Shown here: one piece after another, positions 24,283 to 64,000 of the stretch
Numbering within the stretch: position 1 is the stretch's first letter
Layout: every line of letters starts with the position of its first letter
Translations under genes and position numbers: made by a program
Notes under the pieces: generated by a model
Told to the model about the DNA's origin: nothing
Database searches by the model: none
What the model saw: the letters and a program-made list of their open reading frames with translations, nothing else
Source: Vermamoeba vermiformis
Lineage: Eukaryota
Reading direction: 5' to 3'
Assembly (NCBI GenBank): GCA_045837725.1
Contig: JBEWZL010000152.1
Coordinates: 496,001 to 560,000 of the forward strand
DNA: 64,000 nt

Positions 24283-27200
24283 ATGATGTCCACAAAATCC
24301 CGGGACTTTCGCGATGAGCTTGCCAAGATCCACCAGCAGCTCAAAAATCAAAGGTGAGTCTCCTTATAGAACGACAAATTTAATTTGCCCTTATACGCGG
24401 GTTATTTTGGCAATTTATCCACCCTGCAAAGGGAATTTTGGCTTGTCTAACTTACAATCCCAATTTAGAACCGAAGACGAAAGATCTCTTGCTTGCATTG
24501 CTCTAAACAATTTGGTAGATATTAGAAGAGAATGAATATAGTATTCAACCAACTAACTGCTAGTAATTTCAGACCCAGGTTCAATCCCGAGAACTGTCAT
24601 CTGAGCATTTCGCCAAGTTCGCAACTGAGCTCTTTAAATTAATCAGTGAACTCATTCACAGTAATAATCAGAATGACAAAATCGGCGGCATTATAGCATT
24701 AGAAGCCTTAATTACGTCTGACACTCTGCCCGATCGAGCGACCTTGATGTTCAATTTACTCTGTCGTGGTGGAATGACCAGCAAAGATGAACGAGTATTA
24801 ACGCTCGCAAGCCAGACGTTGGGACGGCTGGTCCACATTTACGGCCACAGCATCGGAGATCTCATTGACGCAGAGTTAGTTCGGTCGTTAGAATGGCTGG
24901 CCGACCCAAAATCTGGTCACGTGCTCGCTGCACTATTAATCACATCCCAGATTGCCGCCAACGCATCGCTCAACATCTACTTGCATCTGTCACATTTGCT
25001 GGACTTGATTTGGCCCGCATTGCAAGACAGAGATGTGAATGTTCGTGTGGCAGCCAAAGAGACACTTCAAATTTGTTTGCGACTGATCAACGATCGCCAG
25101 TCACCCTCAGATACGCACCATATACAGATGAAGGCGGTCTATGAATCAGCAGTCAAGTGTTTGGAGCAAAGTCATCAAAGGAGCGAACACTTGCACGGTG
25201 CACTACTTGCCCTCAATGAGCTCGTGTTCTACCCCTCGTACTTTTCCGAAAATGACTTTCAACACGTGTGCGACGTTGTAATGAAGCTTTGGGACGCCAA
25301 CAACAGCATGGTACGTGCTCAAGTCACCTCGCTACTCCCAGCTCTCGCCGAACTGCTTCCGCAACTCTATTCTGAACGTCATTTGGCTGCTATCATGAAA
25401 TTGCTGCTGAGTGCGCTTGCACAACGCGATTCTGCTGAGCGCGCACGAGCATTTATAACGATTGGCAAACTATCCCTAGCAGTTCGCAGTCACATGCAAG
25501 ATTACGTTGAAGAAGTTCTCACGGCTGTTCGTGCTGCCGTGTCATCGAAGAGCAAGTCGGTGTTCAAAGAAGCGTTGATCTGCGTATCCATGTTATCTAC
25601 AGCTGTCGGCCTGTCAATGCAAAGATACGCGAAGGAGTTACTGCAACAGATCTTCGGCGGTGGACTGTCACAAGAGCTAGTTGACACACTCACCGCGTTA
25701 TCTCAAAACATCCCCGAGCTATCTTTTGACATACAGTTGCGTCTGCTAGATGCAATTTCTCGCGTGCTAACGAAGAAAAGTCTTTTGCAATCGGGCTCCC
25801 AGTCACGCAAGCTAGACAAGTCAAGCTCAATCCACGACCTCGAACACGATCATAAAACATCATTTTAGCCTTGCATACAGTGGGATCGTTTGCTTTTGAC
25901 CGCGACATTCTCACGCAATTCTCAAATGATATTTTAATCACGTATCTCTCGCACAAGGATACGCAGATACGAAAAGAAGCCTGTTTGATGTGCTGCAAGA
26001 TTTTATCGCGCCTGCCTGCAACTACAACAACCAACGACATTTTAACAAAGCTACTCGAGACAGGCATTGGAGACACAGAGGAAAGCATCCGATCCGCGAT
26101 AATTTTGAACCTCGACACTTCATTTGACACGCTGTTGGCCCAACACGACAAATTAAGTCTGTTATTTCTTGGCCTGTACGATGAATCGCTCGAGATCAGA
26201 GAGCACATCGTCCGTATCTTGGGTCGTTGTGCCGCCAGAAATCCTGCCTACGTACTACCAGTGTTACGAAAGCGTTTGTTGGAGCTTCGTGACGAGCTCG
26301 CCTATAGTCGAGATAGCGTAACGTGCGAACAAAGCGCTCGTCTGCTAGCTTGTTTAGTTGGTGGTCCTGAACTCTTTGCAGAAAGCTCCTATGACAGCGC
26401 GCAACATGAGGTCGACTGGTCGCACGAGAGAGGCCTTTACAGCCCAGTGCATCATCGACTAGTAGACCCTTACGTGGATTCGTTGCTACGTGTGCTAATC
26501 AGGCGAGCTAAGGATTCTGATCCGCGCACTATTGCTTCCGTCTTACGGGCAATATCGGCCGTAGTCTATCAAGCACCATTAGAACTCACTGCTGAACACG
26601 TCGAAGAGCTTTTCAATCTAATTGCACTCATACTTGAAGATCATTCATCCACATTGAAGCGAGTGATGGCTCTGAAGTGTCTCGCTGTCGTGGCACAGTT
26701 CACTAGCCCCGCAATGAAGTCCTTACTGCACACTTCCAAAGTGTACGAGCAAGTATTGGACATGCTCAAGTCGGATCATTTACCAGCCATAAGAAACATC
26801 ATTACGTCTGTAATGGGCACTTTTGGAGCTGTAGATTCTCAATGGCACCGGCGGATGCAGCTTGAAGACCAAAAATCCAACGAGACCACTGTGTCGTTGC
26901 GTGGCGTGTTCTCTAATGCAGAAGACAATATCTATGCCAGAACTGTAGTTGACGCCCTACTGCGAGTCATCAGCGACCCATCTCTCAGTTCACATCATCG
27001 CCAAGCATTACAAGCACTCGTGTTTCTGTTTGACAGCCTGGGTCAAGGATGCGCTCAATTTTTCCGAGCAGTACTCGATGCCCTACTCCTTCTGATACGC
27101 AACAGTGACTCGCTCCTTCGTGAAATTACATTGCAACAGCTCGCCGGCCTAATTGCAGCAATTAAAGAGAGTGTACGCGAATACTTGCCCGAGATAATGT

Positions 27201-30200
27201 TGCTGATTGGCGAGTACTGGCAAGTGCATTCAATGCAAGTGCTACTGCTGATCGAAGTAACTGCTTCGTCTTTGAACGAGGAGTTCGAAGCCTACATGCC
27301 TCAGATTACTCCGTACTTACTCGCCATTCTGAAAGAGCCCTCACATCAGCGACTTGTGAAAATCAAGGCTTTGCATTGCGTCGAGTTGTTAAGCAATTCC
27401 GGAGCATTCCAGAGCTTGATGAAGCAGCTCTACGTAATTATCCCTGCGATTACATCGCTATTCACAACGTCTGTTCCATTTGACGTGTCACATGAAGCAC
27501 TTGCAACGGTAGACAAATTAGTACAACGTGGAGACTTATCTCGATATACCTCTAGTATCGTGCAGCCGTTAACTCGAGTGCTAAGCAGCAGACCCGAGAG
27601 ACACGACATTGCCATGCAACTCTTGTGTTCATTAGCTGCTCAATCGCGACAGGCTTTCATCGTCTTCATTCCATCAATCAGAAACATCTTGAATCAACAT
27701 AACATCGTGCATATCGCTTACAACAAGCTAGAAGAGCGCCTCTTAGCAGGTGACATTGAAGACGAGGAACAATCGTCAGAGCTCAATCAACCTGAAGTCG
27801 ATGACGCTCCCAGAGAGTACAAGAAAAAGCTGAAGGTCAACGAGCAACTCTTGCGCAGGGCTTGGAACACATCATCGAAGTACACGGCAGAGGACTGGCA
27901 CGAGTGGTTCAAACGCTTCAGCGTCGAGCTGTTGCGTGAATCACCTTCACCTTCAGTGCGCTCGTGTATTGTTCTCTCCGACTACAATCCCATTGTACGA
28001 GAACTCTTCAACATTGCATTTCTGTCGTGTTGGACATCACTGTCGTCTGAAGACCGAGAAGAACTCATGTCACATCTGTTGAAAGTGTTTCACTCCGACA
28101 CAGTGCCAGGCGATGTTCTACAAACACTCCTTGACCTGGCAGAGTTCATGGAGGACAACAGCAATCCGCTACCGATTGACGTGGAGGTGTTGATTCATCT
28201 CACCGAACGCTGCCGTGCCTATGCCAAATCACTTCGCTACCTCGAGACTGAGATCAAAGCATCACCCAATGCTAACGTGATTGAACGTCTCATTGGTGTC
28301 CACAACAAGCTCGGATTGCCGGAGGCGTCTAACGGCATTCTCAAATTTGCACAACAAACATACGAAGTGCAACTCAAAGCTTCATGGTACGAGAGGCTTG
28401 GGCGTTGGGAGAAAGCTTTGGCACATATTGACGAGAACGACAGTTCGCTGGAGGCAACACTGACACGAGTGCGCTGTTTAAAGGCCCTCGGTGAGTGGCA
28501 AGAGCTATCGAAAGTCGATGCAGAAAGGATTGGCCACGATTTGAACAATCAACGCAGCAGACTATTGCACCAATGGCACTAGCAACATCATGGGCACTTC
28601 GAGACTGGGATGCAATGCGCAACTACGTTCAAGTACTTCCTGCAGCACATCTCGAAGGGGCGTTCTATCGCGCCGTATTCCACATTCACCAGAACGAGTT
28701 CCATGAAGCTCATAAACACATCAACATTGCGCGAAGTCTGTTAGGTCCAGAGCTGAAAGTGCTGCTGACTGAGAGCTATCAACGAGCGTACCACGTTCTT
28801 GTGCGCTTGCAGCAACTTACAGAGATGACAGAAGTGATTGACTACAAGCAAAACAGTGCGTGCATTGATAGACAGACTGCTCTGTTACACAACTGGACTG
28901 AGCGATTGAAGAGCTGCGAACGCGATCCTGATGTGTGGTATCAGATCTTATCCGTACGCTCGCTGGCTGTGGACGCGAACAAATACGCGGATGTGTGGCT
29001 CAAGTTCGCAGCGCTGTGTCGCAAAAACGATCGTCATCATCAGGCCCATGATGTGCTGCGTTCACTACTAGGCTGCGACCTCACTCTTGACGTGTCTGAA
29101 CAAACGCTACTTCAAGCCCCAAAGATTTCTCTTGCGTTTACAAAGCTTCTCTGGACCGAGGATAAGCGCCCTTTGGCCTTCAAATACTTGCAGCGGCTAG
29201 CTGTGAATTATCAAGGAGACTACAATCTGCAAGCACGCATGCTCGTCAAATTGGGACAGTGGCAGACCAGTCTTCAAGATGGACTGCGCGAAGACAACTT
29301 ATCGAGCGTGCTGGCAACATTCAAGGCTGCAACAGAACTTGATCCAGACTATCAACAAGGATGGCACGCTTGGGCCATGGTCAACTTTGATGCAATTGCT
29401 TACCACGAAAATCAGCTGGGCCACACAAAAGATGCCAAAGCAGTCGCTGACAGCATCAAAGCACACCTCGTGCCCGCTGTCACAAGTTTTTTCCGTGCAA
29501 TTTCACTGAGTCAAGGCAACGCGTTGCAAGACACGCTACGTCTCCTGACACTCTGGTTCAAATACGGTGCCAGCAAAGAAGTCGAGAATGCTCTGCTCGA
29601 AGGATTCGACATGTGTCCGATTGAGACTTGGCTGCAAGTGATACCTCAACTCATAGCTCGCGTGCACTCCCCTGTCGAAGCTGTTAGACGTCTGTTGCAC
29701 GATTTGATTGTTCGGTTAGGGCGTGAGCATCCTCAAGCGCTCGTGTTCCCTCTCACGGTGGCCAACAAGTCACCCAGTCAGCAACGAGTGCTTGCGGCTC
29801 GTGAAATTATAGAACGAATGCGTGTTCAAAGTGCAAAGTTGCTAGACCAAGCACAACTCGTCAGCAACGAACTGATTCGCGTCGGATATTTGTGGCCAGA
29901 GATCTGTCTCGATTCGATCAGAGAGGCCCACATGTTGCTAGCAGTACAGGACGTTGATGGCGCGCTCGACGTGTTAGGGCAAATGCACGGTGAATTTCTG
30001 AATCCGAAGACGCATTTTGAAGTTGAGTTCTTGCAGGAGTATGGTCAAGCGTTGGATCAAGCATTGGCGTGGTGTCAAGTAAGTGTTGACTTTTCATCCT
30101 CCAATAAGCTCAACTAACAACCGGACAGAAATTTGCGAGTGAAGGTCACAGAAGTCACCTGAGCAATGCGTGGACTCTGTACAAGCGTGTTTACGACAGA

Positions 30201-31571
30201 ATCCACAAGAAATTGTTCCAAACATTCGACCTGAACCAAACGTCACCACAACTGTTCACAGCGCACGATTTGGAACTGGCAGTGCCGGGCAGTTATAAGC
30301 CACATCAATCTATCGTTACCATCGCCAAGTTTCAGTCGCAACTCCACGTGTTCCAGACTAAACAACGACCTCGCAAACTAGCGTTAATGGGCTCTAACGG
30401 CACCAAGCACAGCTATTTGTTAAAGAGCAGAGAAGACTTGCGATTGGACGAGCGAGTGATGCAGCTCATCAGGCTCGTCAACACGCTGTTGAAGGGCGGT
30501 CACAAGACACAGCACAAGAAGAGATCGATCAACACGAATAAGAACCTCTCGCACCTCTCCATTGCGTACTACGCTGTCGTGCCCCTCTCACCAGACAGTG
30601 GACTGATTGGCTGGGTGCCGCACTCGGACACATTCAATCAACTCATTCTGGACCACCGACAGGCACACAACATTTCAGCTTACGAAGAGCACCAATTCAT
30701 CTCTCAGCGTGGTCCTTACGACACATTGCCGCCTCAAGAAAAGTACGAGGTACTGAAGGAAACTTTCCAAAACTATTCGCCCCAAGACCTCGCACAACTC
30801 TTGTGGTCGAAGAGTCCTAGCAGCGAAGTGTGGCTCGAGCGCCGCACCAATTTTACTCGGTCACTCGCAGTCATGTCCATGGTCGGATATGTGCTCGGTC
30901 TCGGTGACAGACACTTGTCCAACATGATGCTCGACCGATACACCGGCCAAGTGATTCACATTGACTTTGGCGATTGCTTTGAAGTAGCCATGCAGCGCGA
31001 CAAATTCGCCGAGACTGTACCATTCCGATTGACACGGATGTTCGTGAATGCAATGGAAGTCAAAGGTCTCGAAGGCATTTACCGCGCCACAAGCGAGACT
31101 GTGATGACGTTGATGCGCGAACACAAAGAGTCGTTGATGGCGGTGCTGGAGGCCTTCGTGTACGATCCACTCATCAATTGGCGCTTGATGGACAACAGCA
31201 ACAAGTCGCGCAGTGAAGACCAACAGAGCGACGAATTCACACTCGATTCTAACGAGCACATCAACTCGCCCTTTTCGCTCGAAACATTTCCTGGTCACTC
31301 GCACGAGAGGCGGTCCAAGTCGCTCGATTTAGACTCTCCATCTGAAGACAACACACCCAAACAGAACAACAACATTGTGGCAGCACAAGTCGGGGCACTC
31401 AATCAACGCGCAGTCGCAGCCATCAATCGCGTAAATCAAAAGCTCTCTGGCCGTGACTTCGTTGAGAACACGACGCTGAATGTCTCCGATCAAGTGACAC
31501 GTCTCATTCAACAAGCGACTTCCCTCGACAACTTGTGCGTCATGTTCAGTGGCTGGTGTCCGTATTGGTAG
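24283..31571 (+). CDS. TOR: Target of rapamycin (TOR) kinase, divergent; two frameshifts in this assembly (~25855 and ~28511)
   Basis: HEAT N-terminus (DKIGGIIALEAL, RNPAYVLP.LR), FAT (LLRESPSP, LQDTLRLLTLWF), FRB, PIKK kinase (LLKSREDLRLDERVMQL, GLGDRHLSN, HIDFGDCFE), FATC (GWCPYW*). Only three introns seen: two at the 5' end and one at ~30079-30128. Confidence 0.93.
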
Positions 31572-36195: not shown

Positions 36196-38720
36196 TTAGA
36201 CATCAAATACAGCGGTTCGTTTCAAGTCGTCATACTTCTCCAATTGGTGCGTGAAGTAACGAACTTGGTAAGATCCGCTTTGCTCGGGCACATTCAGCAA
36301 CATCCAGTTCTGCTTGGGATCGATGTACTTGAAAGTGACGTATTGTTTGTTGTTCTCTTCGCCAGCCTTGTAGATACCGATCCAGTCTGAGGCAGTGGAC
36401 TTGACGGACAACAACTCCCAAGTTACCTTGAGTGCAGTGCCCTCAATGCTGACAGTCAACTTGTCCTTGTCTTCAATCTCAAACGCCTTGTTCATCACCA
36501 CTGAACCCGCGCTCTTGCTGTAGTACTTGAGCTCGTACTTGCCAGGTCTCCAAGGGGCGTTGAATTGCAATTGACCTTCCTTCAAGTCAACGTACTTGTA
36601 CTCCTGGTAGTCGTTGTGACCGGCACGGTAGACACCGATCCAATCAGAGGCAGAGGGAACTTCTGACTGCAAATCGTACTTGACAGTCAAGGTCGTGGCG
36701 ACTTGTTGCTCGTTCTTTACGAGGTCAAGGTCCAACTTGTTCTTGTTGAGAATGAGAATCACATTGCTTCGTGCAGTCGAGTTATAACCAGCTCCGTAAG
36801 GGAAGTAACGGAATTCATATTGACCTGGCTTGCGAGGAGCGTCAATCTCAAAGGAGGTCTTGTCCTTGGGCACGTAGGCCGAGTGCAAGTATTGACGGTT
36901 AGGACTGTCTTGGACGAAGAAACCAATCCAATCGTTCTTGGTCAGCTCACCAGACTTGACCAACCAGTTGACCTTCAGCTTGTTGCCATTTTGGGTGGCA
37001 ATCAAGTGCACTTCGGGACCCAACAAAAAGACGCTGCTCTTGGCAATCATCATGTTGCTCTGCGTGAAGTAGCGGAACTCGAACAAACCGGGCGATGAAG
37101 GTACGGGAACTTGGTCGTTGCCCAGCTTCTTGCCACCAGTCTTAATGTAGCTCTTGTACTTCTTGTTGCGAGCATTGAAGCGGTACAGGCCAATCCAATC
37201 GCTGTTGGTAGGTTGGATGTTTTTGTCGTTCACGTTCCACGAGACCGCAAGAACGGTCTTGCTGGACTGATCGACCTTGATAGTGCAAACTATAACGCAA
37301 TTAATTTATGAATTGGCGTCGACGAGTATATGCTAGTACTTACGCTTGTCTTGCTCTTCCTTATTCAAGCGCGAGTTCTCCAAGTCCTCGCCCTCTTCTT
37401 CCTCGTCACCAGTGCTGCTGCCTTGCTCGACAACTTGCAGAGTCGAGGTCCTTAGCGAGCTTGTTGCGCTCAACCTCTTCCATCTTGCGCTGCTCTTCTT
37501 GTTCCTGGCGAATACGTTCCTCGAGTGCCAATCTGTTGGCTTTTTCCTTCTCTTGACGCTCAATCTCTTCTTGAGCCTTGCGTGCAGCTTCTTGTTTCTT
37601 CTTTTCTTCTTCTTTAAGCTTCTCTTCTTGAAGACGCTCGTTCTCCAGTCTCATTTCTTCAAGTTTGCGCTCCATTTCCTCGCGCTCTTGTTGTTCACGT
37701 TCGAGTCTTTCAGCCTCTTCCTTTTGTTTGCGCAACAACTCTAAGCGAGCACGTTCCTCGGCTTCTTGTTTAGCCAGCAATTGAGCGAGTTGCTTCTCCT
37801 TTTCCACGAGCAACTTTTGTTGTTCTTGTTTGAGTCTCAATTCTTCAATCTTCTGAAGTCTGAGTCTCTTTTCTTCTTCTTCAGGATCAACAGCAGGCTT
37901 CTGAGGCGCGACGGGCTGCTTGGGAGGCACTGCAGGCCACTTGGGCGGCTCTTGGACAGGCACAGGCTTGGGTCCAACAGGCTGGTTTGGTTGACGAGGG
38001 TGCTCGACGACCACGGGCTTCTTTTGGTTGGCATGTTGACGAATTTGGTTCACAGCTTCAGGGTCAGAACCAATGTCGAGCAAAGTCTCAGCTGTGCGTT
38101 CGACATCACCCTTGTTTTGTTGGTAGACGGTGGAAATTACAGATTCAGTCAAGTCTGCTTGTCCACGGAACATGCCCTTGATGGTGTTGATGTCACGTCG
38201 TTGTTCATCGAAAGGGTTTCCTTGCTGAGGTAGTTTAGGCTGCACTGGGACTAAAAAAAGACTCGATCAGAAAATTGAAGAATTGTTTCAGAAAAGAAAA
38301 TCGGAAATTGAAAGAATAAATTTAGGTAGCGAACGTATATGAAATAGTGTGAATGCCGAACACTATTAAAACAGCAGCTTAAATTTCAAGAGGCAATCGA
38401 AAGAATTTTCGGTGGATGCAAGCGTGAATTACAAACAGCTTGATTATCAACAATTAAAATATCATGAATTATGCAAACGGGGATGATAATAATTATCATT
38501 ATTTCGAAAAATGCAAGAAAACGAGTTATGACGTGGATTTACCTTGTTGCTGTTTTGGCTTTACGCCAGTTACGTCGTTCGTCATATTGAGCAAAATATC
38601 AACAGTACTGTCATAATCGCCATTTTCAGCATCGAGAATGTTGCCAATGACTGACTTCGTGAGATCCGTTCCTTTGCCGAATTGCTCGAACAAAGCGTTC
38701 ACTTTCTGCTCTTTATTCAT
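36196..38720 (-). CDS. Protein with two CUE-like domains, Pro-rich region, long coiled coil and four SKICH-like (DWIG) repeats
   Basis: Two related helical units (LTKSVIGNILDAENGDYDSTVDILL; MF...LTESVISTVYQQNKGDVERTAETLL), an E/K/Q-rich coil, and four repeats of DWIGxY/F...P..PG.YExRY. Confidence 0.72.
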
Positions 38721-42073: not shown

Positions 42074-45000
42074 ATGTCGCTAATCAACGCCACAACGGCT
42101 TCTCCTAGAGCCATGAGTAGCCCGGAAATTCGCTCAGAATGGTTCCTAAACGTATCTGAGATCGTTTCGGCGAAAGACATCACGGTAAGCAGCATAACAA
42201 GCGAGATCTACTGGCGGAAGAGACTTTCTGACCTTTTTAAAATAGTCTCTCGCTTCGCTTTGGGAAGAAATATTCCCTAAGCAAGCTACTAAATGGACCA
42301 AGCACAGAAAAAGCACTCAAAATTTGGAGCCTATTTATAAAAAGTTAATCGAAAAATGCCGAACAGCGGTTCACGATCCGAAGGTAACAATAAAATCTTA
42401 AATATTTAAATCTAATGGCGAGGCTAAATGCACATAAAATAGCCAGATGCGAAAAATTTTCAAAATATTATCGAAAATTAAATCATTTTCGGTTGTCACT
42501 TCAGGGCGTATTTGAGACTAACACTTAGTACGAAATAGGCTGAACAAGAGCTCGATAAGATTATTTTAGAGACAGAAGATTTGTGCCTGTACGGTGTTGT
42601 TCGCGCCATCCACTTTCGCGTCCACTTGATTGAGCTCGACAAAGAAGTCGAGGAGGTCCGTATAATTACCCTCAATATTCACAATTGGCTAATTTTATCA
42701 CTCTAGGTCGAAGTGGTGCCACCAAAGGAGATGTCATTGCCCGACATTTTGGAGTCCAAGCTGATCTTGCAAAGTTACTTGGACTATTTGCGCAACAATG
42801 GACCGGACAAATTCGGAGAATTCGTCAACAACACCTTGCTGCGCTTAATTTCTACCGTGCACCCTAATGAGACCGAACGTACGACCAACTTGATGCACTA
42901 CACGAGCGTGTTGGAGAAGTACTTTGAGTGGAAGAAAGATTACCAGTCCATTCAAACACTGCACACTCGCTCAGCTGAGTACAAGATTCGTCGTGAGAAA
43001 CTCAATCAATTGCGACGAGCCATCAAAGCTGAAATCGAAGGATTATGGTACGTCCTATTCAATGCCGTATAGCATAGTATTAATTATGTTATATTTAATT
43101 AGGCAAAGCAATCAGTTGCGCAGAGATCCTATCCCTGTGCAAAGCGAGGCACGACGTATTTTGGAGCGCTATCGTGTCATCATCAAAGCGTTTCCGACCT
43201 TTGTCAAGTTCGTGAAGCACTTGGCTCGTGAAGCGTTCTGGCTGTATCAAGCTAGTGTGTACTGCCAATCCGAGAAGTGGAAGCGCACCTTTGAAGGCAT
43301 CTTCAAGACTGGTCGTGGCAGTCGTAACGACAAGCTGCGTGCCATCAAAAAAACTTTCACTGCCTTGGACATCCGCTTGACACCTCCTAGAATCGCCGCT
43401 CCGATCATTACTTTCGGTACTTGGAAGGGTATGCCGCTTTCGTTTTATTTATTGGCCAATAAATAACTAACACGTGGCTCAGGTGGTGACAGAGACGGTA
43501 ATCCATTCGTCGTTGCTTCATTCACAAATCAGACTTTCGTCGATCAAAAAGAGTTCGTGTTAGAACGATACATCAAGATTCTGCGTCACTTGATCGACAA
43601 GCTGACACCTTCAATTGACCACATTTCTGCTTCCGAAGAGTTGTTGAACTCCATTAAGAAAGATCAGAAATCGTTCCCTTATGTCAGTGACATCAAGCCG
43701 CATGAGCCTTACCGCTGCAAGATTAGATACATTCTGGAGAAGCTCGAAAACACGTTGACACGTGTCAAGGAAGTCAAGAAACGTGCCGGAGAAACTACCA
43801 AGCCATTGCTTGGTCAAACTCTTGTTGGTCCTTCGGGCTACAACAGCTCCTTACAATTGTTGAGCGATATCGACGTTATCTACAATTCCTTGGTGCAAAA
43901 CGGAGGCAAAGCTCAAGGTCGTAGCTCGGTGCAAGACATCAAGATTTTGGTCGAGACTTTCGGCTTTCACATGGCCTCCATTGATTTCCGTCAATTGAGC
44001 ACCAAGAACTCATCTGCGTTGAAGGAGTATTTGACCGCAATCAGTCACCCTCAAGCTGCTAAGTTCGACCAGTTGGACGAAAAAGAGAAGCAAGCAGCTC
44101 TCGTGTCATTGATTCGCTCGGAGTACATTGAAATGGACCCCTACGCAATCGCTTCACTGTCGAAGATTTCTCGTGACACGCTCGAGACCATGCTGATCTT
44201 TGCTGACGCTGCTCGAACTGATCCTAAGTAAGAATATCAATCTTCACTGCTTGTGCTGATCTAACTGTGTAACAGAACCACGGGCAAGTTCATTATCAGT
44301 ATGTGCCAGAATGCTAGTGACGTGCTGACCATGCTGATGTTAATGAAACTTGTCGGCATGTTGATCACCAAGGACGGTGAGATCTCTTCGTGCGATTACG
44401 ATGTCACTGGTCTGTTTGAGACTGTCGACGATCTCAAATCTGCTCCTCGTATTATTGAGGACTTGATGGCCATTGATTTCTACCGCGATTATGTGGTCAA
44501 GTTGCGTGGTGGCAAGCTCACCGTCATGATGGGCTACAGTGACAGCGTTCGTGACGGCAGCTCTTTGGCAGCTGACTCGCAAGTCATTCGCACCGCGTTG
44601 TCCTTGAGAAACCTAGAAGAGGAGTTGAACCGCAAGTACGACACGCAACCTCGCTTGGAGTTCATTTACTACCGTGGTCGTGGTGACACCATTCCAAGGT
44701 AAGCAAGTGCCACATTGAATAAAATAACATGGCGTTAACCTATCATCGTGCAGAGGCTTTGGTGGTTCAATTACGAAGGCCATTGGCTCACAGCTGATTA
44801 CTCGTCGTGCTGAGGATCACACCGAACAAAATCGTTACTTGCGTGTCTATGCTTCAGTCCCCAGCGCAGTACATCACTTCCACTCAGTCTACTCTGCGCA
44901 CATCTCGTCGCAAGTTAATGTAAGTCCAAATAGTTACTATCATTAGGGTAGGACTAATTGTTACGCTAGGAAATTAACTTTGACATCAATCGCTACCAAT

Positions 45001-50761: not shown

Positions 50762-52626
50762 ATGCGCACTTGGGAATACGCACTGATATTTACATCCTTT
50801 TTGCATTTGCTATTCGGATCACCTGTCACTCTGATCAGCGTCGCTGCCTCTCTAGGTCTGCAGGTTTTTCTAGAATCTCACCGATGGCAATTATATCCTG
50901 TATATGCAGCATCGACGATGTTGCTTCTGACTGCCTTATTTACGTTCTCTGGTAAGCACTTACGAACAATTTTGCATTTAAAATTGAAAAGAATATTTTA
51001 AAAAATGCAGTTCTAACTTACAACGTAATGTAGCATCACCTGCGATTATTGTTAGAATATTCTCATTTTTGGGTGTTGCAATTTCTGCAGCTCTCGGATT
51101 TGTGCTTCCAGGTACGCACTTATCGCTTCTGTTTGCTTCAATTGCCTGCTAAAATATTTACATCGTACATTAGTGCCTAAAATTCCAAAACTTGAAAAGC
51201 CAGTTGGTACATTGGAACATACCATACTTCGCAGCACTGTGTAAGTATCAATTAACACATTATTCGTCATTATTCTATTTTTAACGGTCTTTAAATAGTA
51301 ACGACACGCAGTACACTCTACTCACGAATCTTACTAAAGACGTTCGAGTTCGGATCTGGTACCCTGCTAAGCAATCTAACTCAATGTAAGTTGCTGACGT
51401 TTTGAGCCTCGCATTCGATGTTGATTGTTTCACAGCCCCGCAGTATATCGTAATTATTACCCCGAAGGGTCCGTCGCACCCATGCTGAAGATTGGATTGA
51501 GCGACAAATTGCCGCAGTTCTTCGGCAGTCACTTTTACTTGATGAAGAGCAATGCTGCTTATGGCGCGCCAGTCTCGGAAGAACGCATGCACTGGCCCGT
51601 GCTGTTGATGTCGCACGGTCTCAAAGGGTATGTCGCACCCGTTGTTCGAAGTATTCAATCTTTAACGTAAATGCAGCATTCCAGAAACTTACATCACGCT
51701 CGGTGAGCAATTGGCGAGTGAAGGTTTTGTCGTGCGTATCTAAGTGCTGTTGAGTGTGTTATTTACAACTAATCCATTTGTTTCAGGTCGTAGCTCCCCA
51801 GCACACTGATGGCACGTCACCGATGAGTTATCAGAACACCAACACGACGCAAGAGATGCGCAACCAACAGCTCAATCGGCGATGTGAAGACATGCAACTG
51901 GTTGTTGACACGCTGAAGAAAGGTACGCGTATAAATCGAGCTGGATCACCGCTGACAAATAGCTGACGTGGCGATGATGTTAGGCGGCATTCCGTTGTTG
52001 AAAGATCACATCGATCTGCACGAGCTTGGCATCTGCGGCCATTCATTTGGAGGTGCTACAGCGGTCAAGTACGGGCAATTGAATCCCGATGTTAAAGCAC
52101 GAGTCAGCTGGGACGGTTGGATGCATCCGTTATTGCCCAAAGACTTGAAGACTCCCTGTGATGCTCCGATCATGTTCTTGAACAGCGAGTTGTATCAGTG
52201 GGAGGCTAATCTTGACGACATGAACACGATCTGTGCTCACACGAATGGCGGCGGCTATCTGTTGACGGTCAAGGGCACTTCGCACCACAACTGTAAGTTT
52301 GACAAGTGTGCTGCCGTAACAGTGCTAATGTATGTTGTTAGTCAATGACATCGCTCTTTATTCTCCAATTGTTACAAAGCAGTTGGCCAAGAAAGACAAA
52401 GGCTTTTTGGGTCCCATCGATCCGTAAGTATTCCGTTTGATCTTCGTTTCATATGTTTAAATTATGTTATTATAGTCTACACAGTTTAACCATTGCTTCA
52501 AAATCAACGGCCATGTTCTTCCACAGAAAATTTGCGCACCTTCGCGACAATTCAGTTGTGAAAAAGCTTGTTGAGTCCGATTTTGAGCACTTTCCGGAGG
52601 TGAATTATTCTTATTTGCATGGTTAA
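50762..52626 (+). CDS. PAF-acetylhydrolase-like alpha/beta hydrolase with N-terminal membrane segments
   Basis: RIWYPA, PVLLMSHGL, LASEGFVVVAPQHTDG, nucleophile GHSFGGATA, DGWMHPL, GTSHHN. Confidence 0.88.
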
Positions 52627-55749: not shown

Positions 55750-56160
55750 TCACACTGACAGGTTCATTATTTTAGCCAAAAATGATTTGCCATTATCTGA
55801 CTGTAGTATTTCAGGGAACTGAAGCTCATTCAAGAAGAGTTCGAAGATGTAATGCACAATTGGCTCTACCTCTTGAGTTGGAAAGCACTTGGCCCAGGCA
55901 AATTTCGAGAAACAATCAATGATAGTGAGCATATGGCAGTCGCCTGTGATGGGGTCTGCATATTCGAAGCTAGTGAAGTCGATTTGAAGCCATTCCAAGA
56001 TCCGATCAGCAGTTATTGGCTTAGTTGGTGGCTTTGGAATTCCAGTACATATTTTCATCATGGCACAATGTTCACACTTGTCAATGAATGTGTTGACATC
56101 GTTGGTAAGTCCAACCCAATAGTATTTGGCTTGTAGTTCGTAAATCATGGTGTTTAGGGC
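55750..56160 (-). pseudogene. Truncated Ginger/gypsy-type (rve) integrase fragment
   Basis: KYYW.GL..DV..FI..CEHC (half of the HHCC finger), LQIDF, LTIIDCFSKFAWA, ILQSDNGKSF. The N-terminal His pair and the third catalytic residue are missing. Confidence 0.85.
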
Positions 56161-56414
56161 CAGGGCTGGCCACTTTTTTAAAATAAAATTGTACTTCAAA
56201 CATGGGTAACCTTGTTCTTGGTGCAGCAGGAGGGCGTCAGACCGTCTGACGGCCTAGGGATGGGGGGTGCGTCAGACGGTCTGACAGCCTCAGGTGCAAA
56301 GGCATTGCACATGCACCTGCACCCTCAGTCATGCACTGCAACAGCAAAGGGTGCAGACGGTCTGACGGCCTTGGACAGGGGGGGGGTGCGTCAGATGGTC
56401 TGATGGCCTAGGGA
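56161..56414. repeat. Putative DNA-transposon left end: CAGGGCTGGCCA terminus plus four palindromic GTCAGAC-N-GTCTGAC subterminal repeats
   Basis: The integrase homology stops at ~56160. Repeat copies are at 56236, 56271, 56353 and 56390, each followed by (G/A)GCCT, and are arranged as two pairs each joined by a G-run+TGC. Confidence 0.6.
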
Positions 56415-56720
56415 TTAAACGATAACTATTGTAAAATCAAATAAATGCGTTATAGATTATTTATAAATAATTAACTATTTAATCTATCGTAATATTGTGT
56501 TAAAATGATAGTCACTCATGGATCTGACCGCCGAATCTAGGCAACGGCAGATCGCGAAAAAATTTATTCACTAAAAAGGGACCTGTTTTAAAGACTTACA
56601 TCCTAAGCTTAGACTTAGCAGTTTCCAAAATATGACGCTTATTTGAGGTGTTTGTGCGGAGAATCGGCCCTGAACTTTTTGATTTTGGATCAAAGACCGA
56701 CGTAGTCAACCACAAGAAAA

Positions 56721-57928
56721 ATGACTGACCGCATTGTTTATGATTATGTTAATGTTCCTTATGGGAAACCTATGGAAGAGACGATTGATTTACCTGCCCT
56801 GACGGAAGAGGATTTAAAAGAGTATCGGACCGTAACGACAAGGTAATAAATAATTTTAAATAATTTAATATTGGTAAAATATCAATCTTCCGTTGACCCA
56901 ATGAAATATTATGATTTGCCAATTATTATTTTAATTCTTTAATTTTTTTTAGCACCGTTTTCAAGGACGATTACGGCAGTACTGCCATAGCTTTTTTCCA
57001 AGGGGTGCTCGAGAAAAAGACTGTCGATGACGCCAAAAAAGCTGCCCAGTCGTTATTAAAAAATTTAAAGCCATCTCAACCTGGGACTAGCGCGCATACA
57101 GGCGAATGGCGAAAGAGCAGCGATTGGATATTCAAAACCAAAGACACAGTCAACGGTGAAGAGTACTACAAACGAGTTAACCGAAAGCCCTTTTGGCAGA
57201 ATGCTGCCACAAAAAAGATCGTCAAAAAAGTTGATAACTACTTTTCAAGAACAGCGAGCGATTTATGCGAGGCATATAAAAGAATCAACGCAGAACGCAT
57301 TTACGGAGGCTCGTACCTCATGTGCGTTATCAACACTGGGGTAGTTGGGCCTCATTACGACGAGAAAGACGAAATTGAAGGACTTTGCTGTGTCGTTCCA
57401 ATGGGCGTATTTGATGGTGGCGACCTGGTGTTCCGACAACAGAAGCTTCGTTTTCAAGTACGAACAGGAGACATCATCTTCTTCCGCTCTCGCGAGTTGA
57501 TGCACGAGAACTTACCTTGCACCGGAGAGCGATATTCGTTAGTCTTCACTACTGACCACGACTCGTTTACGGAATTTGGTCAACCTGCTCGTCAGTACAT
57601 GCATTGGAAGCAACCAAAGTTAAACAGTCACGCCACTATTGAAGCACAAGGATTCAAACCCGAAGACGTACCCGAGTTACGCAAAACAAAGGTTGTTGTT
57701 ATCGACAAGGTGTACACAAAACTAACGCGTGCAAATACACCACGAACAAAATTTGGTACGTTAAAGCTACCCTCACAAGATGGAAACCCAAGGGCACCAA
57801 TTTCTCTTCGAAAAAATGCCAAGAAAAAAAAGAAGGCAACGAAGAGAAAGAGAAAAGAGATCGACGATGACGAGAGCCATTCTGAAGAAATATTGCTCGA
57901 AACAAAAAGACGGCGTATACAAAAATAA
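56721..57928 (+). CDS. TET/JBP-family 2OG-Fe(II) dioxygenase with basic C-terminal tail (2 exons)
   Basis: IN....PHYDEKD (HxD), LCCVVPMGVFDGGDLVF, GDIIFFRSRELMHENLP (distal His), RYSLVF (RxS 2OG-binding); NLS-like KKKKKATKRKRK. The intron (~56843-56952) keeps the frame. Confidence 0.82.
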
Positions 57929-57929
57929 T

Positions 57930-59270
57930 TTATTTGTTACGATAAAAGAAGAACGATAATAAATTGTTAATTTCCATTTGGTATTGATTACGAGTGTAGA
58001 GCTCTTTCATATAATAAAATAAATCCAAATTATTCGGCAAAGTTGACAAATTAGCTGATGCTAGTGGAAGCGAGGGCAGCAATTGGGGAGGTAATGAAGG
58101 TTGAGGCATGCTGAGCGACTGGGCATTATTTTGACTTTGCAAGTCGGGGGTCTTAAGCGGTGGCAACAGGGCTGGCTCATTGTCTACTGACCTCGGCAGA
58201 GGTAACAATGACTCCTCGTGACCCTCCTCTTGCTTTGTCTCAGGAGGAGTTTGAACCAACTTCTTTTTTTGCTTGTACCGCCTCTTGGTGAGCTTATATT
58301 CACCTGATGCATCATCGCTTATAGAACGATCAACAACAACACGTGTCTTCTTTCTTCGGGTCATAGATTTTGACTTCGCAGCTGCCGTTGGACTTGCCGT
58401 CTTTTCATTTTTTCTTGCTCCTTGCGATCTTGTCACCCGTCGTTCAGGGCCAGGAGTGCTTTTTTGCTCTACTTTCTTTGTTACTCGGGCCTTTTCTTGT
58501 TTTGAGGGTGGTACTACTTCCTCTTTAGAATGTGTTCGTTCTGGTGAAGACTACTAGGATTAAAAATTTGTTAATTAATTTGAGCTTACTTTATGTGTGA
58601 CTTCTCCAGACAGAAATTGTTGCCAAATTGTCGTCAATTGTTCGTTTTGCTCGGTTGGGATTTGTGCCGGGTCTGAAAATTTTCTGAACTGCTTAACGTC
58701 AAGCAAACACACCTCGTCAAACTTTTCTGTTGTTGCAACTATCCTTGGACTTAAACCCTTTCAAACCGTAGTTACAAATTATAAAAATAATTAAAATAAT
58801 TGTTAAGTAATCGTTCTTACCCTTTCAATTGCTAAAATTATATATGTAGTGCTTCCTTCATTCAGTAGAATGCGATTGCCAGAACCAAGAGCAATTTTAG
58901 AGTTGGGAAGTAAAACAGAACCGTAGTAACGACCATTGATTGCACTTCCATTGTAGCGTGCAGTACTATGAAGTTCGTCTATCAAAGTTTAGCATGTGGC
59001 AACCCTATTATTTGCTTGTACCGCTATCTTCATCCTTTTTCACGTTGGATTTCTCTTCATCTAGTTTTTTTATTGATAAATTTGGCTTGGTTTCCTCTTT
59101 CAAAGTAGTTAAATCTGCTTCTTATATAATATATTAATTCGTCTAGTAGGTAAAAACATGTAACTTTTTTTTACAAGCCAGATCTTACCGAGAGCAACCT
59201 GAGTACTTGTTGGTAAATCATCATTCTTAGTAGTTTCTTCATTACTTATTGAGGACTCATCAGCACTCAT
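57930..59270 (-). CDS. Spliced gene of unknown function: acidic N-terminus, small beta-rich domain, K/R-rich and Pro-rich low-complexity C-terminus
   Basis: Five exons join in frame through GT-AG sites: MSADESS...|EADLTT...|DELHSTARYNGSAINGRYYGSVLL...IILAIER|GLSPRIV...|SSPERTH...FFFYRNK*. Confidence 0.62.
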
Positions 59271-59482
59271 TGTTATGGTTGTGTGTATCCCAATCAAAAC
59301 GTTACTATCATAAGTAGTTTTACTTTGCCGACATGCATTTTCGAAGCTTCCTTTCCTTTTTTGGAAATTCAACGAGCAATTTTTTCCCTGCTTTACCAAG
59401 CCTTCGTTAGCATTAAAATCAGGTAGAACCACCACAACATACTTTGGAAAGTGATATACTTGCAATATAATATCAAAATAAT

Positions 59483-62400
59483 ATGGCAGATAATATACTA
59501 GGTAAGATCTTAAGAGTTGCTGTTCGGATCTTGATTTCTAAATATTTTTTTACTTCGGCACATAACTTATCTTTTTTAACAAGATTAATTAAGTCTATAT
59601 CTTACCTCTGTTGTGTAATTGGCTAGGCAATTATGCAATGTCGGATTAAATCTGAGCATTTTTACATTAGGTATCGAAATCGAAGGAGCGACAGTAAGTT
59701 TTAAGCATTACGCACATGATTTTTAATTTATTTAGCCCATTCCAAGTGATTTACAAGGGTTTGTATGGGGATCCGGAGGTTGAACTATTTTGTTACAAGC
59801 ATAATTCTAACCGGTGTACAGGAATTATCAACTTGTGTACCATGGAAACATTGTGCTTTATATTTAAACAAGCCCTAGTGGTATACAACATGGTAGTTGA
59901 TTGTGAATTTTTTCGACTATTGCGCAACACTCTGGATGCCGTTACATTTGATCAACTACACACCAGTAAATTACCAATAATTCAGTTTTTCCAAAAGCTG
60001 TGTCCTACTTGGGTGCCAGGAAGATACGTTGGCGTAAATGAATTACTAAATCCTTTAATCAAATCGGAGCTTGTTTTCAAGACCAAATTTGAGCTTTGCT
60101 TCACCAAGTCAGTCAACTGTGATTGTGGCCAAGAAGTTCAAACTCTCTTTAGCAACTCTCTGGTGGTATCTGAAGATTACTTGAAACAAACAAATTCAGT
60201 TACTGCATCAATAAGAAGATCAATGTTTCGAGAGCAAAACTTAGCAGGTGTCTGTTGCTTTTGTCACTCACCAAGGCACTTGAAAGGTAGATAAACTGTT
60301 TCAAAACTAACTTTAACCAACCTTCTTTAGAATCAATAACAAAGCTTCCAGACTTGTTGGTTGTGGAGTTTGACACTGGACATCAAAACTATCTGTCTTC
60401 TACATTTGATATTGAACAAATTGTTCGCTTAGAAGATGGAGATTTTTCATTATTGAAGGCATTGAGAATTGATGGGAATCATACTACTGGATTCTTTCAT
60501 AAAAATGGTCGAGTGCATGTTTATGATGGCTTAAAAAATGAGGGTAAAGCAATGGAGCTGCAGTACTCTAAAATGCACTATCTACCCTTGGAAGATTTTA
60601 AATATATAACACACTTGATTTACATTCGTACTGCCAATTTTGCCAAAGGTAATAACATTAAATTCAAGCTTACTACTCTGTTGACATGCTAATGTACTTC
60701 TTAGACTTGGTTCTTTCAGATAGCAGTCAATTACTATTCTCACAAATCAATGCAGCAAAAAAACTCACTCCCCTTGGAGATAGTGGCTCAACCTCCAATG
60801 AATTGGCAACTGTCGAAGCTACCTCATTATTTAGTAGAATGAATCAAACAGTCAATAACACAAAGAGTAGCTCTTTGGCTAAACAATCCATGTTGAAAAA
60901 GAAGTTAACCCAAGAACATGCCTCAAAAAGTATGTGCATCTACCGTTAACTATAGAGCATAATGCTAAATACTGCTTTAGGTTTACGTTTTAAGTGCTGC
61001 ACAAATGAGTGCTGTTCTAAATTTGATCTATTCCAAGTCGTACATTATCGAAACCAATTACTACAAGACAACCATTTCAATTCGAACTTTATTAAATCCT
61101 ACATTCGACAACATGCCAACAACGAAACTATTTCTTGGCAATTTGGAGGGTTAGAAGTTTGTCAAGCAGCATGGTACACACTATATGGATTTTCGTCAGT
61201 TAAATTTTTTAAAGCAAAAAAAGAAGAATTACAAGGTAAACTCTGCATTACTTGAATTGTCATTAATATTGTTTAGGGTCTTATCAAGTGCTTCACGGGA
61301 ACTATTTTCGAGAATATCCAAAGCCAAAGAGTATTAGTGTAAGCGCATGGCTTACAAACTACTGTGAAAAGTATGGAGATTATGTTCCTACAATCAATGA
61401 AATACATTTAAGTGGCAATTTAAGGTAAGTAACGTTACAATTTGCTGTAAGCCTTTAATTGTATGTGCAAGTTTACAAGAGTGGTATGAAGAGTATCATG
61501 CTGAAGCATCAGTCACTTTGGGTGACGTAGCAAGTTTTAAAACCTTTTGCTATGTTCGTAATTCCCAATTTTCGCATGTGAAGTTTCCAAAAGTTACTAG
61601 ACTGGGCAAGTGCTCCATTTGTGTTTCAAATAGAAAATCAAGATTACTTTGTAGTAACCTTGAAGACATCATATCATTGAAATCTGAGTTAAAGGCACAC
61701 TTTAGCGTTACTGCCGGAGAAAAACAACAGTACCATGGCAGAAAGATAAAAGCCAGGCAATATCCAACTGCAATTTTGTCATTTATTAGTGATAAAACAA
61801 AAGATGTAGAAATTCCAACTACCAACCCTCTACCAAAATCATGGACAAGAGTAAAAAGACATCCAGTTGGAATTATGGGCATTTTAAATCATTCGTTAGG
61901 AACCAAAGAATTTGTTTTGTTTTCCCCAGAACAGTGGACCTTGGACTCAAACTTTTTTCTAACAATTTTACATAACTCGATTATGAACTCTCTAAAAGCT
62001 TACAAGGCAGAAAGGCCCAGAGTTTTATATATACAAACAGATAACTGCAGTGCAGAGTCAAAAAACCAGTATTTATTAGCATATTTGGCTCTACTAGTCG
62101 AGTACAAAATTTTCGATGAGATTTACTTCCACACTCTAATTCCTGGTCATACTCATGAAGATATAGACCAACTATTCAGCGTTCTGCACCAAAAATTAGA
62201 AACTGCTACTATTGAAACAATATCACAACTAATCAACTTCATGGAAACAAAAGTTTTCTCAAGTCGTCCAATTGTAACATGGATTCGAGCTGTGTATGAT
62301 TGGAAACAATGGATGTCTGGTTTTTGTAACAAAATATCTGGTCACAAATCACCACATGCTTTCTTAATTAAGAATGGTTCTGACTCTAAGGTGCACCTAT

Positions 62401-63135
62401 ATTATAAAAAGTACTCTCAAGATATGGAATGGTTGGGAGACCATAATCAAAATGTCATTTTCAATTCAAAACCTGCAGCATGGCCAAATATCCTTCATCA
62501 AAACCAGTTTGATCATGAAGCAATTAAAAAGATGGTAGATCAATGCAGGTCACACATCTCGGAAACGGTAAGTTTAAAACTTTGAAAAGCAATTAACAAC
62601 CTTTAGAGTGTTCAATGGTGGCAACATATTGATAAATCAGTTAAAGTCCTACCTTGTTTGTCAATTACACCCAATCCATTTGCTGATTTTCAAATATCTT
62701 CTGTTGTTCAACATGAATTCAAAGTTGTTTCAACACAAACACCAGTTATAAAAGTAACAAAACCTAGGCAAAAAAGAAAGCCAGAAGGTTTGTACTGTTT
62801 ATTATATAGAACGGTTCTAATCATTTCTAGATTGGCCTACAGGAGCTGTGAAAAAGCTTCGTTCTGCAAAAGTAAAGGATGATTTGTTGGATTTATTGGC
62901 AAGCCTTAGTAAATCCTTTGAAGCTAGTCTGCATTATCCTATTCCAACTCTACAACAATCTCTTCGCAACTTACTAGGGTTTGGATCTCCATTTATAACC
63001 AACATTTCAATGAACAAAGAGTTTGAAGAAGAAATTGGATCACTACGGTCAAGAATTGAAGCACTACAGTATTTACATACACTGTTAGAAGATTATGACA
63101 GCATTGTAAAAGATTTGAAGCTCAAAAAAAAGTAA
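59483..63135 (+). CDS. Sola1/DUF7869-like DDD transposase with N-terminal USP-like cysteine peptidase domain and Cys-rich region (multi-exon, apparently intact)
   Basis: Peptidase: HNSNRC, CDC/CCFC Zn ribbon, ITKLPDLLVVEF, GNH, YDG. Transposase: CC...CC, VCQAAW..LYG, HGN, W....GD..P, LGKCSIC, FISD, LYIQTDNCSAESKN, GHTHEDIDQLFS, YDWK.W. All introns from ~60288 onward keep the frame; the first exons are tentative. Confidence 0.82.
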
Positions 63136-63203
63136 ATTTGCCTTTATTTGGTTTTACATTAGTTGCCGTTAATGTTCAACGACTTTCGGTTCAAAGAGTA
63201 AAT

Positions 63204-64000
63204 TTACAACTTCGAAGCAGTACTAGGTGGGTCTAATTTAAATACATGACAGGCGGTCTTCCACAAGAACTTGTCTTTGGCATCCGACGAGAGGCCTAAA
63301 GTATCGACATTTTTCAATGTCTTCTCAAGATTCAATTGCGGAAAATTCGTGCCAAACATCACTAATATAACCTTATTAGCACTTGTATAATATTGTTTAT
63401 ATTAAAAGTCGTACCTTTGTCAGATCCATAAGTCTTCATATAATGAACTAATGCTGGCGGGAAGTATTTAGGATCATAAGCGGAAGTATCTATAATATTA
63501 TAAAGAAGCGTTAATAAATTATTGTAATTTCCATATAAGGATAAAATACGTACCAATATAAACGTTTTGATGCTTCCAACAAACTGCAATCATTTCTTCG
63601 GTCCAAGGATATCTAATAAACAATAATAAGACCCCATTTCATATATATATTATATATATGTTACTAACTTACCCAAGATGACCGCCAACAATTTTCAATT
63701 GAGGAAAAGTTAGCGCAACTTCGTCGATGTACGGGATCGGACGACCAGTCTCGGAAGGCATAAGCGGCCCTGTATGCCCCACTTGACAACAAAATGGTAT
63801 GTCTAATTCGATGCACTTGACATATAACGGATAATACAACTTGTCATTGGGAGGAAGTTTCCACATCCTGATCGCACGAGAGAAAACTCATTAATAAACA
63901 CGAAATCATCCATTAGGATATAATTATGAGAGTTCAATGCATAATATTTACCATGGAACAACTCGAAGAGCTTTAAAACCGTATTCTTTGACGCATTTTT
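63204..64000 (-). CDS. Amidohydrolase_2-family protein, 5'-truncated by the window edge, ending in PTS1 (-SKL)
   Basis: PPNDKLYYPLYVKCIELDIPFCCQVGHTGP, FPQLKIVGGHLG, IDTSAY, MFGTNFP, ...PPSTASKL*. Confidence 0.88.

Follow-up and report, generated by a model that had tools for sequence, protein, structure and literature searches.

The gene model at 59716-63135

The DNA analyzed here (the window) is a stretch of 64,000 nucleotides from Vermamoeba vermiformis, contig JBEWZL010000152.1, positions 496,001 to 560,000 of the forward strand, and all coordinates below are counted from its first letter. The gene under study was modelled at 59716-63135 on the + strand. It is read as encoding a putative ubiquitin-specific protease (USP)-like domain followed by a transposase with the Pfam domain DUF7869, and an open reading frame (ORF) with weak likeness to TET/JBP dioxygenases is located upstream of it.

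Two + strand ORFs, 59716-60294 and 60354-60692, were found in different frames. A GT..AG intron of 44 nt in phase 1 (60287-60330) unites the coding blocks 59716-60286 and 60331-60648 in frame, and the whole of 59716-63135 could be modelled in eight exons as a single open frame of 1032 codons. An earlier note on this DNA had described an in-frame splice through a linker into the transposase, and as a gene model this holds. The seven introns are all of the GT-AG type and 39-56 nt long, with a guanine plus cytosine (GC) content of 26-35% each as compared with 36% in the exons. The modelled protein displays, in this order, the USP-like domain, a low-complexity linker, the DUF7869 DDE transposase and a helical tail. 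Its parts are as follows.

59716..60286, + strand: exon A, residues 1-190 plus 1 base; putative thumb and fingers half, with Cys box and zinc ribbon
60287..60330, + strand: intron 1, 44 nt, GT..AG, phase 1
60331..60648, + strand: exon B, residues 191-296; putative palm half with the LPDLLVVEF strand, GNH and YDG
60649..60704, + strand: intron 2, 56 nt, GT..AG; if retained, it leads to a stop at 60690-60692
60705..60929, + strand: exon C, Ser/Thr/Lys-rich low-complexity linker
60981-61235, 61277-61424 and 61472-62567, + strand: exons D, E and F, Cys-rich N-terminal region and DUF7869 DDE core
62607-62787 and 62831-63135 including the stop, + strand: exons G and H, a basic stretch and then the C-terminal helical tail, from the splice model and open frame

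The joining of exon A to exon B is independently supported because a relative of the N-terminal domain, P0014, spans this junction. Its sequence passes without a break from the region matching exon A to that matching the first 35 residues of exon B, where 20 positions are invariant. At the site of intron 1, P0014 carries about 16 extra in-frame residues, and it ends after ...DDANVQ, where exon B of the window carries on. At the sequence level this looks like an intron read through in frame, followed by an intron at a different position in P0014.

The D/E and E/F introns are confirmed, since one continuous DUF7869 alignment (spliced residues 373-849 against residues 52-529 of the sea-urchin protein P0001) crosses both junctions. 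Exons G and H gave no homology support, and their model rests on splicing and the open frame. An apparent intron of like size was read by eye at about 30080-30130 in the mTOR host gene of the window. From three RNA runs labelled with the same species, 0, 1 and 1 reads mapped to 56400-64000, too few for any test of expression or splicing.

The N-terminal domain and its relation to USPs

A HMMER search with the N-terminal domain against 1.84 billion representatives gave six matches at E<=0.001, one of which (P0013) was the window's own ORF. P0017 and P0018 were dropped as spurious, being tandem-repeat proteins matched in 10 short stretches. The three true relatives, P0014, P0015 and P0016, showed 54%, 40% and 42% identity, respectively. 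They are short ORFs (127-218 aa), and the contigs that encode them measure 1.1-5.3 kb (5274 nt for P0014 and 3582 nt for P0015). Relatives were obtained neither from a search for longer proteins with exon A nor from a near-relative search with exon B, and two metagenome contig scans and one viral contig scan revealed no relative. The four-sequence alignment contained 24 invariant columns, including C135, C137, C180 and C183. Judged by these alignments, the N-terminal 296 residues are a real but very rare protein family, which goes beyond a chance set of motifs given three independent relatives at 40-54% identity.

The motifs that the earlier note had listed were all present on the + strand: HNSNRC (residues 29-34), CDC (135-137), CxxC (180-183), LPDLLVV (196-202), GNH (239-241) and YDG (255-257). 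The positions that bear on catalysis and zinc binding in exon A are listed here.

59800..59817, + strand: HNSNRC, ending in C34; the Cys box proposed earlier, probably not catalytic
59836..59838, + strand: codon of C41 (NLCTMET), the likely nucleophile; Cys in 3/3 covering sequences
60118..60126, + strand: CxC knuckle (C135, C137) of the putative zinc ribbon; invariant in 4/4 sequences
60253..60264, + strand: CxxC knuckle (C180, C183) of the putative zinc ribbon; invariant in 4/4 sequences and aligned just upstream of the USP LPxIL strand

The fingers of USPs often carry a four-Cys zinc ribbon. Such a ribbon, found in many but not all USPs, was also found here, and in the AlphaFold2 (AF2) model of exon A its four cysteines lie within predicted beta hairpins.

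Several kinds of comparison pointed to the USP fold. In a language-model Atlas, 17 of the 30 neighbours of exon A belonged to the PF00443/PF13423 set; the highest score was 0.91, and only 126-130 of 256 features were shared. Scores of at least 0.9 are reached by shuffled proteins 4-10 times per 100. Exon B alone had five of its 30 neighbours in a set of which 11% of the members carry PF00443, and one cluster consisting of 100% UCH at 0.87, while its best-scoring neighbours (0.95) were unnamed clusters. The sole Pfam match of P0016 at E<=10 was UCH_1 (E 0.019, 15.1 bits, below the cut-off of 22.2), and it covered the zinc-ribbon region at profile positions 125-203 of 317.

For profile comparison, a set of USPs was assembled by scanning viral contigs with a back-translated USP Cys-box motif, and 73 complete ORFs were thinned to 46. 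PF00443 was confirmed in all 46. Among the giant-virus contigs of IMG/VR the Cys-box pattern occurred in at least 120 stretches, and 73 loci contained compact complete USP ORFs, 258-527 aa long. No zinc-ribbon Cys pairs appeared in the consensus derived from the alignment of the 46 giant-virus USPs.

The spliced A+B profile with the three relatives was aligned to these 46 USPs by hhalign with a score of 24.56 (P 0.013) over 81 columns. LPDLLVVEF was paired with LPxILxIxLKRF, GNH with GHY and YDG with ND, collinear with the USP blocks, and the second zinc knuckle fell directly before the block LPxILxIxLKRF. One of 150 column-shuffled queries reached 24.56 (mean 14.6, standard deviation 2.8); the reversed query scored 16.2 and an unrelated DUF7869 profile (A3) 15.5. 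The confident region of this alignment stops short of the Cys box.

Among the Foldseek matches listed for the exon A model, 38 of 41 were of USP fold (26 USPs, 11 coronavirus PLpro and one Pan2), the best being USP1 with E 0.11. When exon A and exon B were folded by ESMFold2 as two chains together with Zn, the interface score ipSAE was 0.72, 0.76 and 0.75, and the best of three controls was 0.00. Contact agreement between runs was at least 82% and the predicted local distance difference test (pLDDT) of the partner at least 78. The mark applied is passed by 51 of 78 solved complexes and by 2 of 108 mismatched pairs; a pass can stem from likeness to solved USP structures, which is the very point at issue, and is no proof of activity. 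In the confident part of the predicted interface, strand 147-151 of exon A pairs with the LVVEFD strand of exon B. On the exon A side the interface further includes residues 41-42, 44-45, 48-49 and 52-53, and on the exon B side residues 49-53 and 64-67, which correspond to the N-H and Y-D segments.

A number of results weigh against a USP assignment. The curated Pfam thresholds for C19 (PF00443 UCH, PF13423 UCH_1) were not reached by any family member, and exon A, exon B, P0014 and P0015 showed no UCH match in Pfam even at E<=10. Searches of the PDB by phmmer and hmmsearch returned no USP: exon A gave nothing, and exon B and the exon A profile gave chance rows at E 0.22-1.2. When only the exon A family was compared with the 46 USPs, hhalign yielded a probability of 0.09% over 9 columns, and the hidden Markov model of the 46 USPs assigned -2.5 to 0.3 bits to the four family members. 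The AF2 model of exon A from the four-sequence alignment was poor (pLDDT 45.4, predicted template modelling score (pTM) 0.28) and unusable for geometry. Its Foldseek matches listed were all at E>=0.11 with template modelling scores of about 0.2, and none reached E<=0.001.

These failures leave room for a lineage-specific zinc-binding domain with a chance likeness to the USP boxes. Every test with a significance threshold fails, AF2 confidence is low, shuffled proteins also attain high Atlas scores, and the VIA wide structure search was non-specific, with a USP in 1 of 50 rows and generic helical proteins otherwise. Against this, six methods each picked the same pre-specified family from thousands, and a collinear Cys box, two zinc knuckles, LPxxL strand, His box and Asp are unlikely to arise by chance. 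We therefore regard the chance explanation as improbable.

The lines of evidence for the USP fold are several and independent, each weak to moderate and none decisive alone. Because six methods each select the same family, named beforehand, in collinear order, the spliced region 59716-60648 very probably encodes a deeply divergent USP-fold domain (clan CA, C19-like) of about 296 residues. The USP-like domain of the earlier note is supported as fold homology by independent weak tests, but not at any curated C19/UCH threshold.

The domain appears to follow the element order of the USPs (MEROPS C19; USP1, USP2, USP14, Ubp8), beginning with a Cys at a helix start and a predominantly helical thumb, continuing with a pair of zinc knuckles within beta hairpins and the LPxxLxV strand, and closing with the His box and an Asp. 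USPs were its top Foldseek rows and language-model neighbours. The Cys box reads NLCTMET in the window and NTC[FY]xNS in the 46 giant-virus USPs, with similar cores. The usual form of the first zinc knuckle in USPs is CxxC, whereas it is CxC here. The His box is GNHT instead of GGHY, the window domain measures only about 296 residues, and, unlike USPs, it has no match at Pfam thresholds.

The catalytic set proposed earlier needed revision. Its order, Cys-His-Asp, is canonical in this copy, but the Cys chosen, C34, is not the conserved one. HNSNRC was rejected as the Cys box because C34 is a Cys in only 1/3 covering sequences (Ser or another non-Cys residue in the others). C26 was paired with the USP Cys only in a zero-confidence part of a greedy hhalign alignment. 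In contrast to C34, C41 stands in N-L-C-T-[ML]-E-T, which is kept in 3/3 covering sequences including the Asn two residues before the Cys. It is located at the start of a helix (43-57) predicted in the low-confidence AF2 model, and ESMFold2 predicts residues 41-42 to be part of the interface shared with the His and Asp segments. Because of this conservation and these predicted positions C41 was taken for the triad, which is likely C41, H241 (GNH; codon 60480-60482) and D256 (YDG; codon 60525-60527). A point against this triad is that H241 and D256 are known from this copy alone, as P0014-P0016 stop short of both.

Catalytic activity of the domain is close to an even question, leaning slightly to the negative. 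The USP domain of Pan2 is inactive and that of Sad1 is reportedly inactive, and the window domain may likewise have kept the fold as an inert ubiquitin-binding or docking module. Its extreme divergence from active USPs would fit such a role, as would Pan2 among the Foldseek matches listed and a His followed by Thr instead of the usual Tyr. Yet this copy has all three residues, Cys, His and Asp, and has them in the canonical order. Both C41 and the Asn two residues upstream occur in 3/3 sequences, and the predicted interface puts the C41 helix against the His and Asp segments. We consider an inert module possible, though not the likelier outcome.

The DUF7869 transposase and its predicted junction with the N-terminal domain

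The downstream part was recognized as a transposase, as the earlier note had it. Exon F matched Pfam DUF7869 (PF25273) with E 1.9e-52 and 178 bits, against a cut-off of 26. Twelve longer relatives (P0001-P0012, sea urchins and others) were detected at E<=1e-5 among 1638 candidates, PF25273 being present in all 12; sea-urchin proteins were the best, with about 30% identity. Over about 480-570 residues they share 28-31% identity with the window protein, and they possess the same Cys-rich N-terminal region and the same invariant D, D and E. These residues, D107, D190 and E229 in exon F numbering, are invariant in 12/12 and lie in the blocks D, QxDNC and GHTHEDID. From the 12-sequence alignment, AF2 modelled exon F with pLDDT 78.4 and pTM 0.73, and Foldseek returned eight rows at E<=0.001, seven of IS21 IstA or retroviral integrases and one of an acetyl-CoA carboxylase chain. 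The label transposase is thus justified for exons D-F, because of the DUF7869 match, the invariant D/D/E and the IstA and integrase folds, in the sense of an integrase-like (IS21-like) DDE enzyme with a predicted RNase H fold. No published name for the DUF7869 family was found, and the term DUF7869 was not met in the literature searched.

Near the first catalytic Asp (61790-61813, exon F), the window reads ISDKTKD where the relatives read IIIDGxDQ, a two-residue deletion with the Asp kept. On this alignment the deletion may weaken the transposase or may be without effect.

Fusion of the two parts at the junction of exons B and C hinges only on the model of intron 2 (60649-60704). Several points weigh against it. 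The junction has no homology or RNA support, and a blastp alignment over exon C was discarded as homology evidence, being weak and of low complexity only. An ATG at 60686, in frame with exon C, together with the stop at 60690-60692 would permit two genes. In addition, the USP-like domain is present in none of the 12 longer DUF7869 relatives, whose own N-terminal extensions are unrelated to it.

With intron 2 unspliced, the locus would encode a separate USP-like protein, about 313 residues long and ending at 60690-60692, and a transposase starting from the ATG at 60686. This arrangement agrees with the frame of exon B, which ends at 60692, with the want of real homology between exon C and the relatives, and with the size of the exon A relatives, of which only ORFs of 127-218 aa are known. 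However, a 7-nt overlap between the two genes would leave no space for a promoter or terminator. Intron 2 also matches the other six introns in its GT..AG ends, its size (56 nt) and its low GC, and it restores the frame. DUF7869 relatives, too, bear long N-terminal extensions of unrelated sequence, which measure 227-455 aa in P0002 and P0003. Two separate genes are accordingly rather unlikely in our view, and the USP-like domain and the DDE transposase are probably one fused protein.

If they are fused, the domain could also act as a self-processing protease which cuts its own polyprotein to free the transposase, like the USP-fold PLpro of coronaviruses. PLpro accounted for 11 of the 41 Foldseek matches listed, and the long flexible linker of exon C lies between the modules. 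The linker contains no Gly-Gly, though; the sole GG of the N-terminal half is within the DUF7869-homologous region, and no precedent was found in the literature searched. Self-processing is very improbable.

The probable surrounding element, known systems and possible function

Three further features were identified around the gene.

57005..57928, + strand: TET/JBP-like 2-oxoglutarate-Fe(II) dioxygenase ORF, 1.8 kb upstream of 59716
56424..56445, no strand assigned: candidate left terminal inverted repeat, low confidence
63143..63164, no strand assigned: candidate right terminal inverted repeat, 8 nt past the stop codon, low confidence

The ORF 57005-57928 is weakly TET/JBP-like in sequence. 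It matched Pfam Tet_JBP (PF12851) with E 0.03 and 14 bits, below the cut-off of 34.9, and CcTet (7vpn) with E 0.59, the HxD and the distal His being aligned.

The candidate inverted repeats are complementary at 20/22 bases and AT-rich (blastn-short E 0.005 for 1.1 kb compared with 1.5 kb). No target-site duplication was seen at them, no second copy of the element occurs within the 64-kb window, and the candidate ends lack the terminal motif of IS3EU, TAYGG..CCRTA. The USP-transposase gene and the TET/JBP-like gene are probably contained in one DNA transposon of about 6.7 kb, which the candidate repeats would delimit.

Directly left of the candidate left inverted repeat, at 56229-56415, there are four copies of a 33-nt unit with the palindrome CGTCAGACNGTCTGACG, spaced by 35-81 nt. 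A retroelement integrase fragment (55750-56199, - strand; rve E 8.4e-8, Integrase_H2C2 E 8.9e-7) abuts the element on the left and suggests a transposon-rich patch. Between the TET-like and the USP-transposase genes, 57930-58436 (- strand) encodes a low-complexity Lys/Pro/Ser-rich ORF of 168 aa without a Pfam family. To the right of the element is an amidohydrolase gene on the opposite strand.

Elsewhere in the window an mTOR/TOR kinase gene with a few very large exons was identified at 24744-31571 (+ strand; HEAT, mTOR_dom, FAT, FRB, PI3_PI4_kinase and FATC). Further host genes are TCF25 (4833-5666), SKICH/HECW_N (36196-37233, - strand), a piece of a PEP carboxylase gene (43557-44231) and PAF-AH (51968-52348). 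In an animal or a fungus, PEP carboxylase would be unusual.

A published counterpart is a Trichomonas vaginalis protein with Peptidase C19 and transposase_11, an IS4/IS5-like DDE transposase (Bao, Kapitonov and Jurka, 2010; PMC2836005). As is probable for the window, a USP-type domain is joined there to a eukaryotic DDE transposase. The transposase differs, being pfam01609 in Trichomonas and DUF7869 (integrase/IS21-like) in the window, and the Trichomonas C19 domain is recognizable by CDD whereas the window domain is not recognizable by Pfam. The remark on that protein mentions no TET/JBP partner (PMC2836005).

The same source describes transposases with OTU or Ulp1 in Ginger1 and with Ulp1 in Mutator (PMC2836005). 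The peptidase of Ginger1 is C-terminal (PMC2836005), whereas the USP-like domain of the window protein is N-terminal. Helitron-like elements have captured UCH, OTU, VTD and Ulp1 domains (PMC11417382; PMC9741609); UCH domains are stably included in Helentron-type elements according to HELIANO (PMC11417382), and deubiquitinase activity was shown for Helitron VTD domains (Erven et al., 2022; PMC9741609). In all of these, as would be the case in the window, a hydrolase for ubiquitin or a ubiquitin-like protein is encoded next to a transposition enzyme or as a part of it, and the role proposed in these accounts is the shielding of transposition proteins from degradation. Those carriers are rolling-circle (RepHel), Gypsy-integrase-like or Mutator elements, whereas the window has a DDE enzyme of the cut-and-paste type.

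Fungal DNA transposons with TET/JBP genes comprise KDZ, hAT, Harbinger, IS3EU, EnSpm, ESTA, Plavaka and Helitron (Kojima, 2025; PMC12730594). Like the window, these have a TET/JBP-like gene beside the transposase gene, which was proposed to counter silencing by methylation. The main text of that report nowhere uses the terms ubiquitin, peptidase, protease, Ulp1, OTU or USP (PMC12730594). The candidate element of the window differs from those carriers in that its termini do not show the IS3EU ends TAYGG..CCRTA (PMC12730594) and its TET assignment is below threshold.

For a USP domain on a cut-and-paste transposase, the sources consulted yielded only the Trichomonas remark and the Helitron reports. 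The idea of a peptidase-transposase fusion is therefore already known, since the Trichomonas C19-transposase, the Helentron UCH, the Helitron VTD and the Ginger1 and Mutator cases are in print. The new features here are a different transposase family, a domain placed at the N-terminus, a TET/JBP-like gene nearby and a USP-like domain of extreme divergence.

Taken as a whole, we favour with some reserve the reading that a divergent USP-fold domain forms the N-terminal module of a DUF7869 transposase beside a TET/JBP-like gene, with ubiquitin hydrolysis aiding transposition. By analogy with the published carriers, the domain would most likely act as a hydrolase of ubiquitin or of a ubiquitin-like protein, either in cis or where transposition takes place. 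Such hydrolysis might stabilize the transposase against ubiquitin-dependent turnover, or it might strip ubiquitin marks from chromatin or from repair factors around the element at its excision or insertion site. Both the ubiquitin target and the benefit to the element are speculation. A role alongside TET/JBP in escape from silencing, as the earlier note had supposed, is possible.

A bolder proposal is that the domain is the founding member of an unrecognized transposon-specific branch of USPs, carried by a DDE transposase with TET/JBP, so that the element would hold two erasers of silencing marks. We consider this improbable. If true, one element would erase both ubiquitin, on chromatin or on the transposase, and DNA 5-methylcytosine.

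A USP-fold domain at this locus would mean that profile libraries miss a branch of the fold which language-model and structure methods still recognize. Transposons have repeatedly gained ubiquitin and SUMO hydrolases (OTU, Ulp1, VTD, UCH), with measured activity reported in the published accounts only for VTD (PMC9741609). A USP-type domain on a catalytic transposase beside a TET/JBP-like gene would be a compact test case, in which point mutants of C41 could tell deubiquitination of the transposase from that of chromatin.

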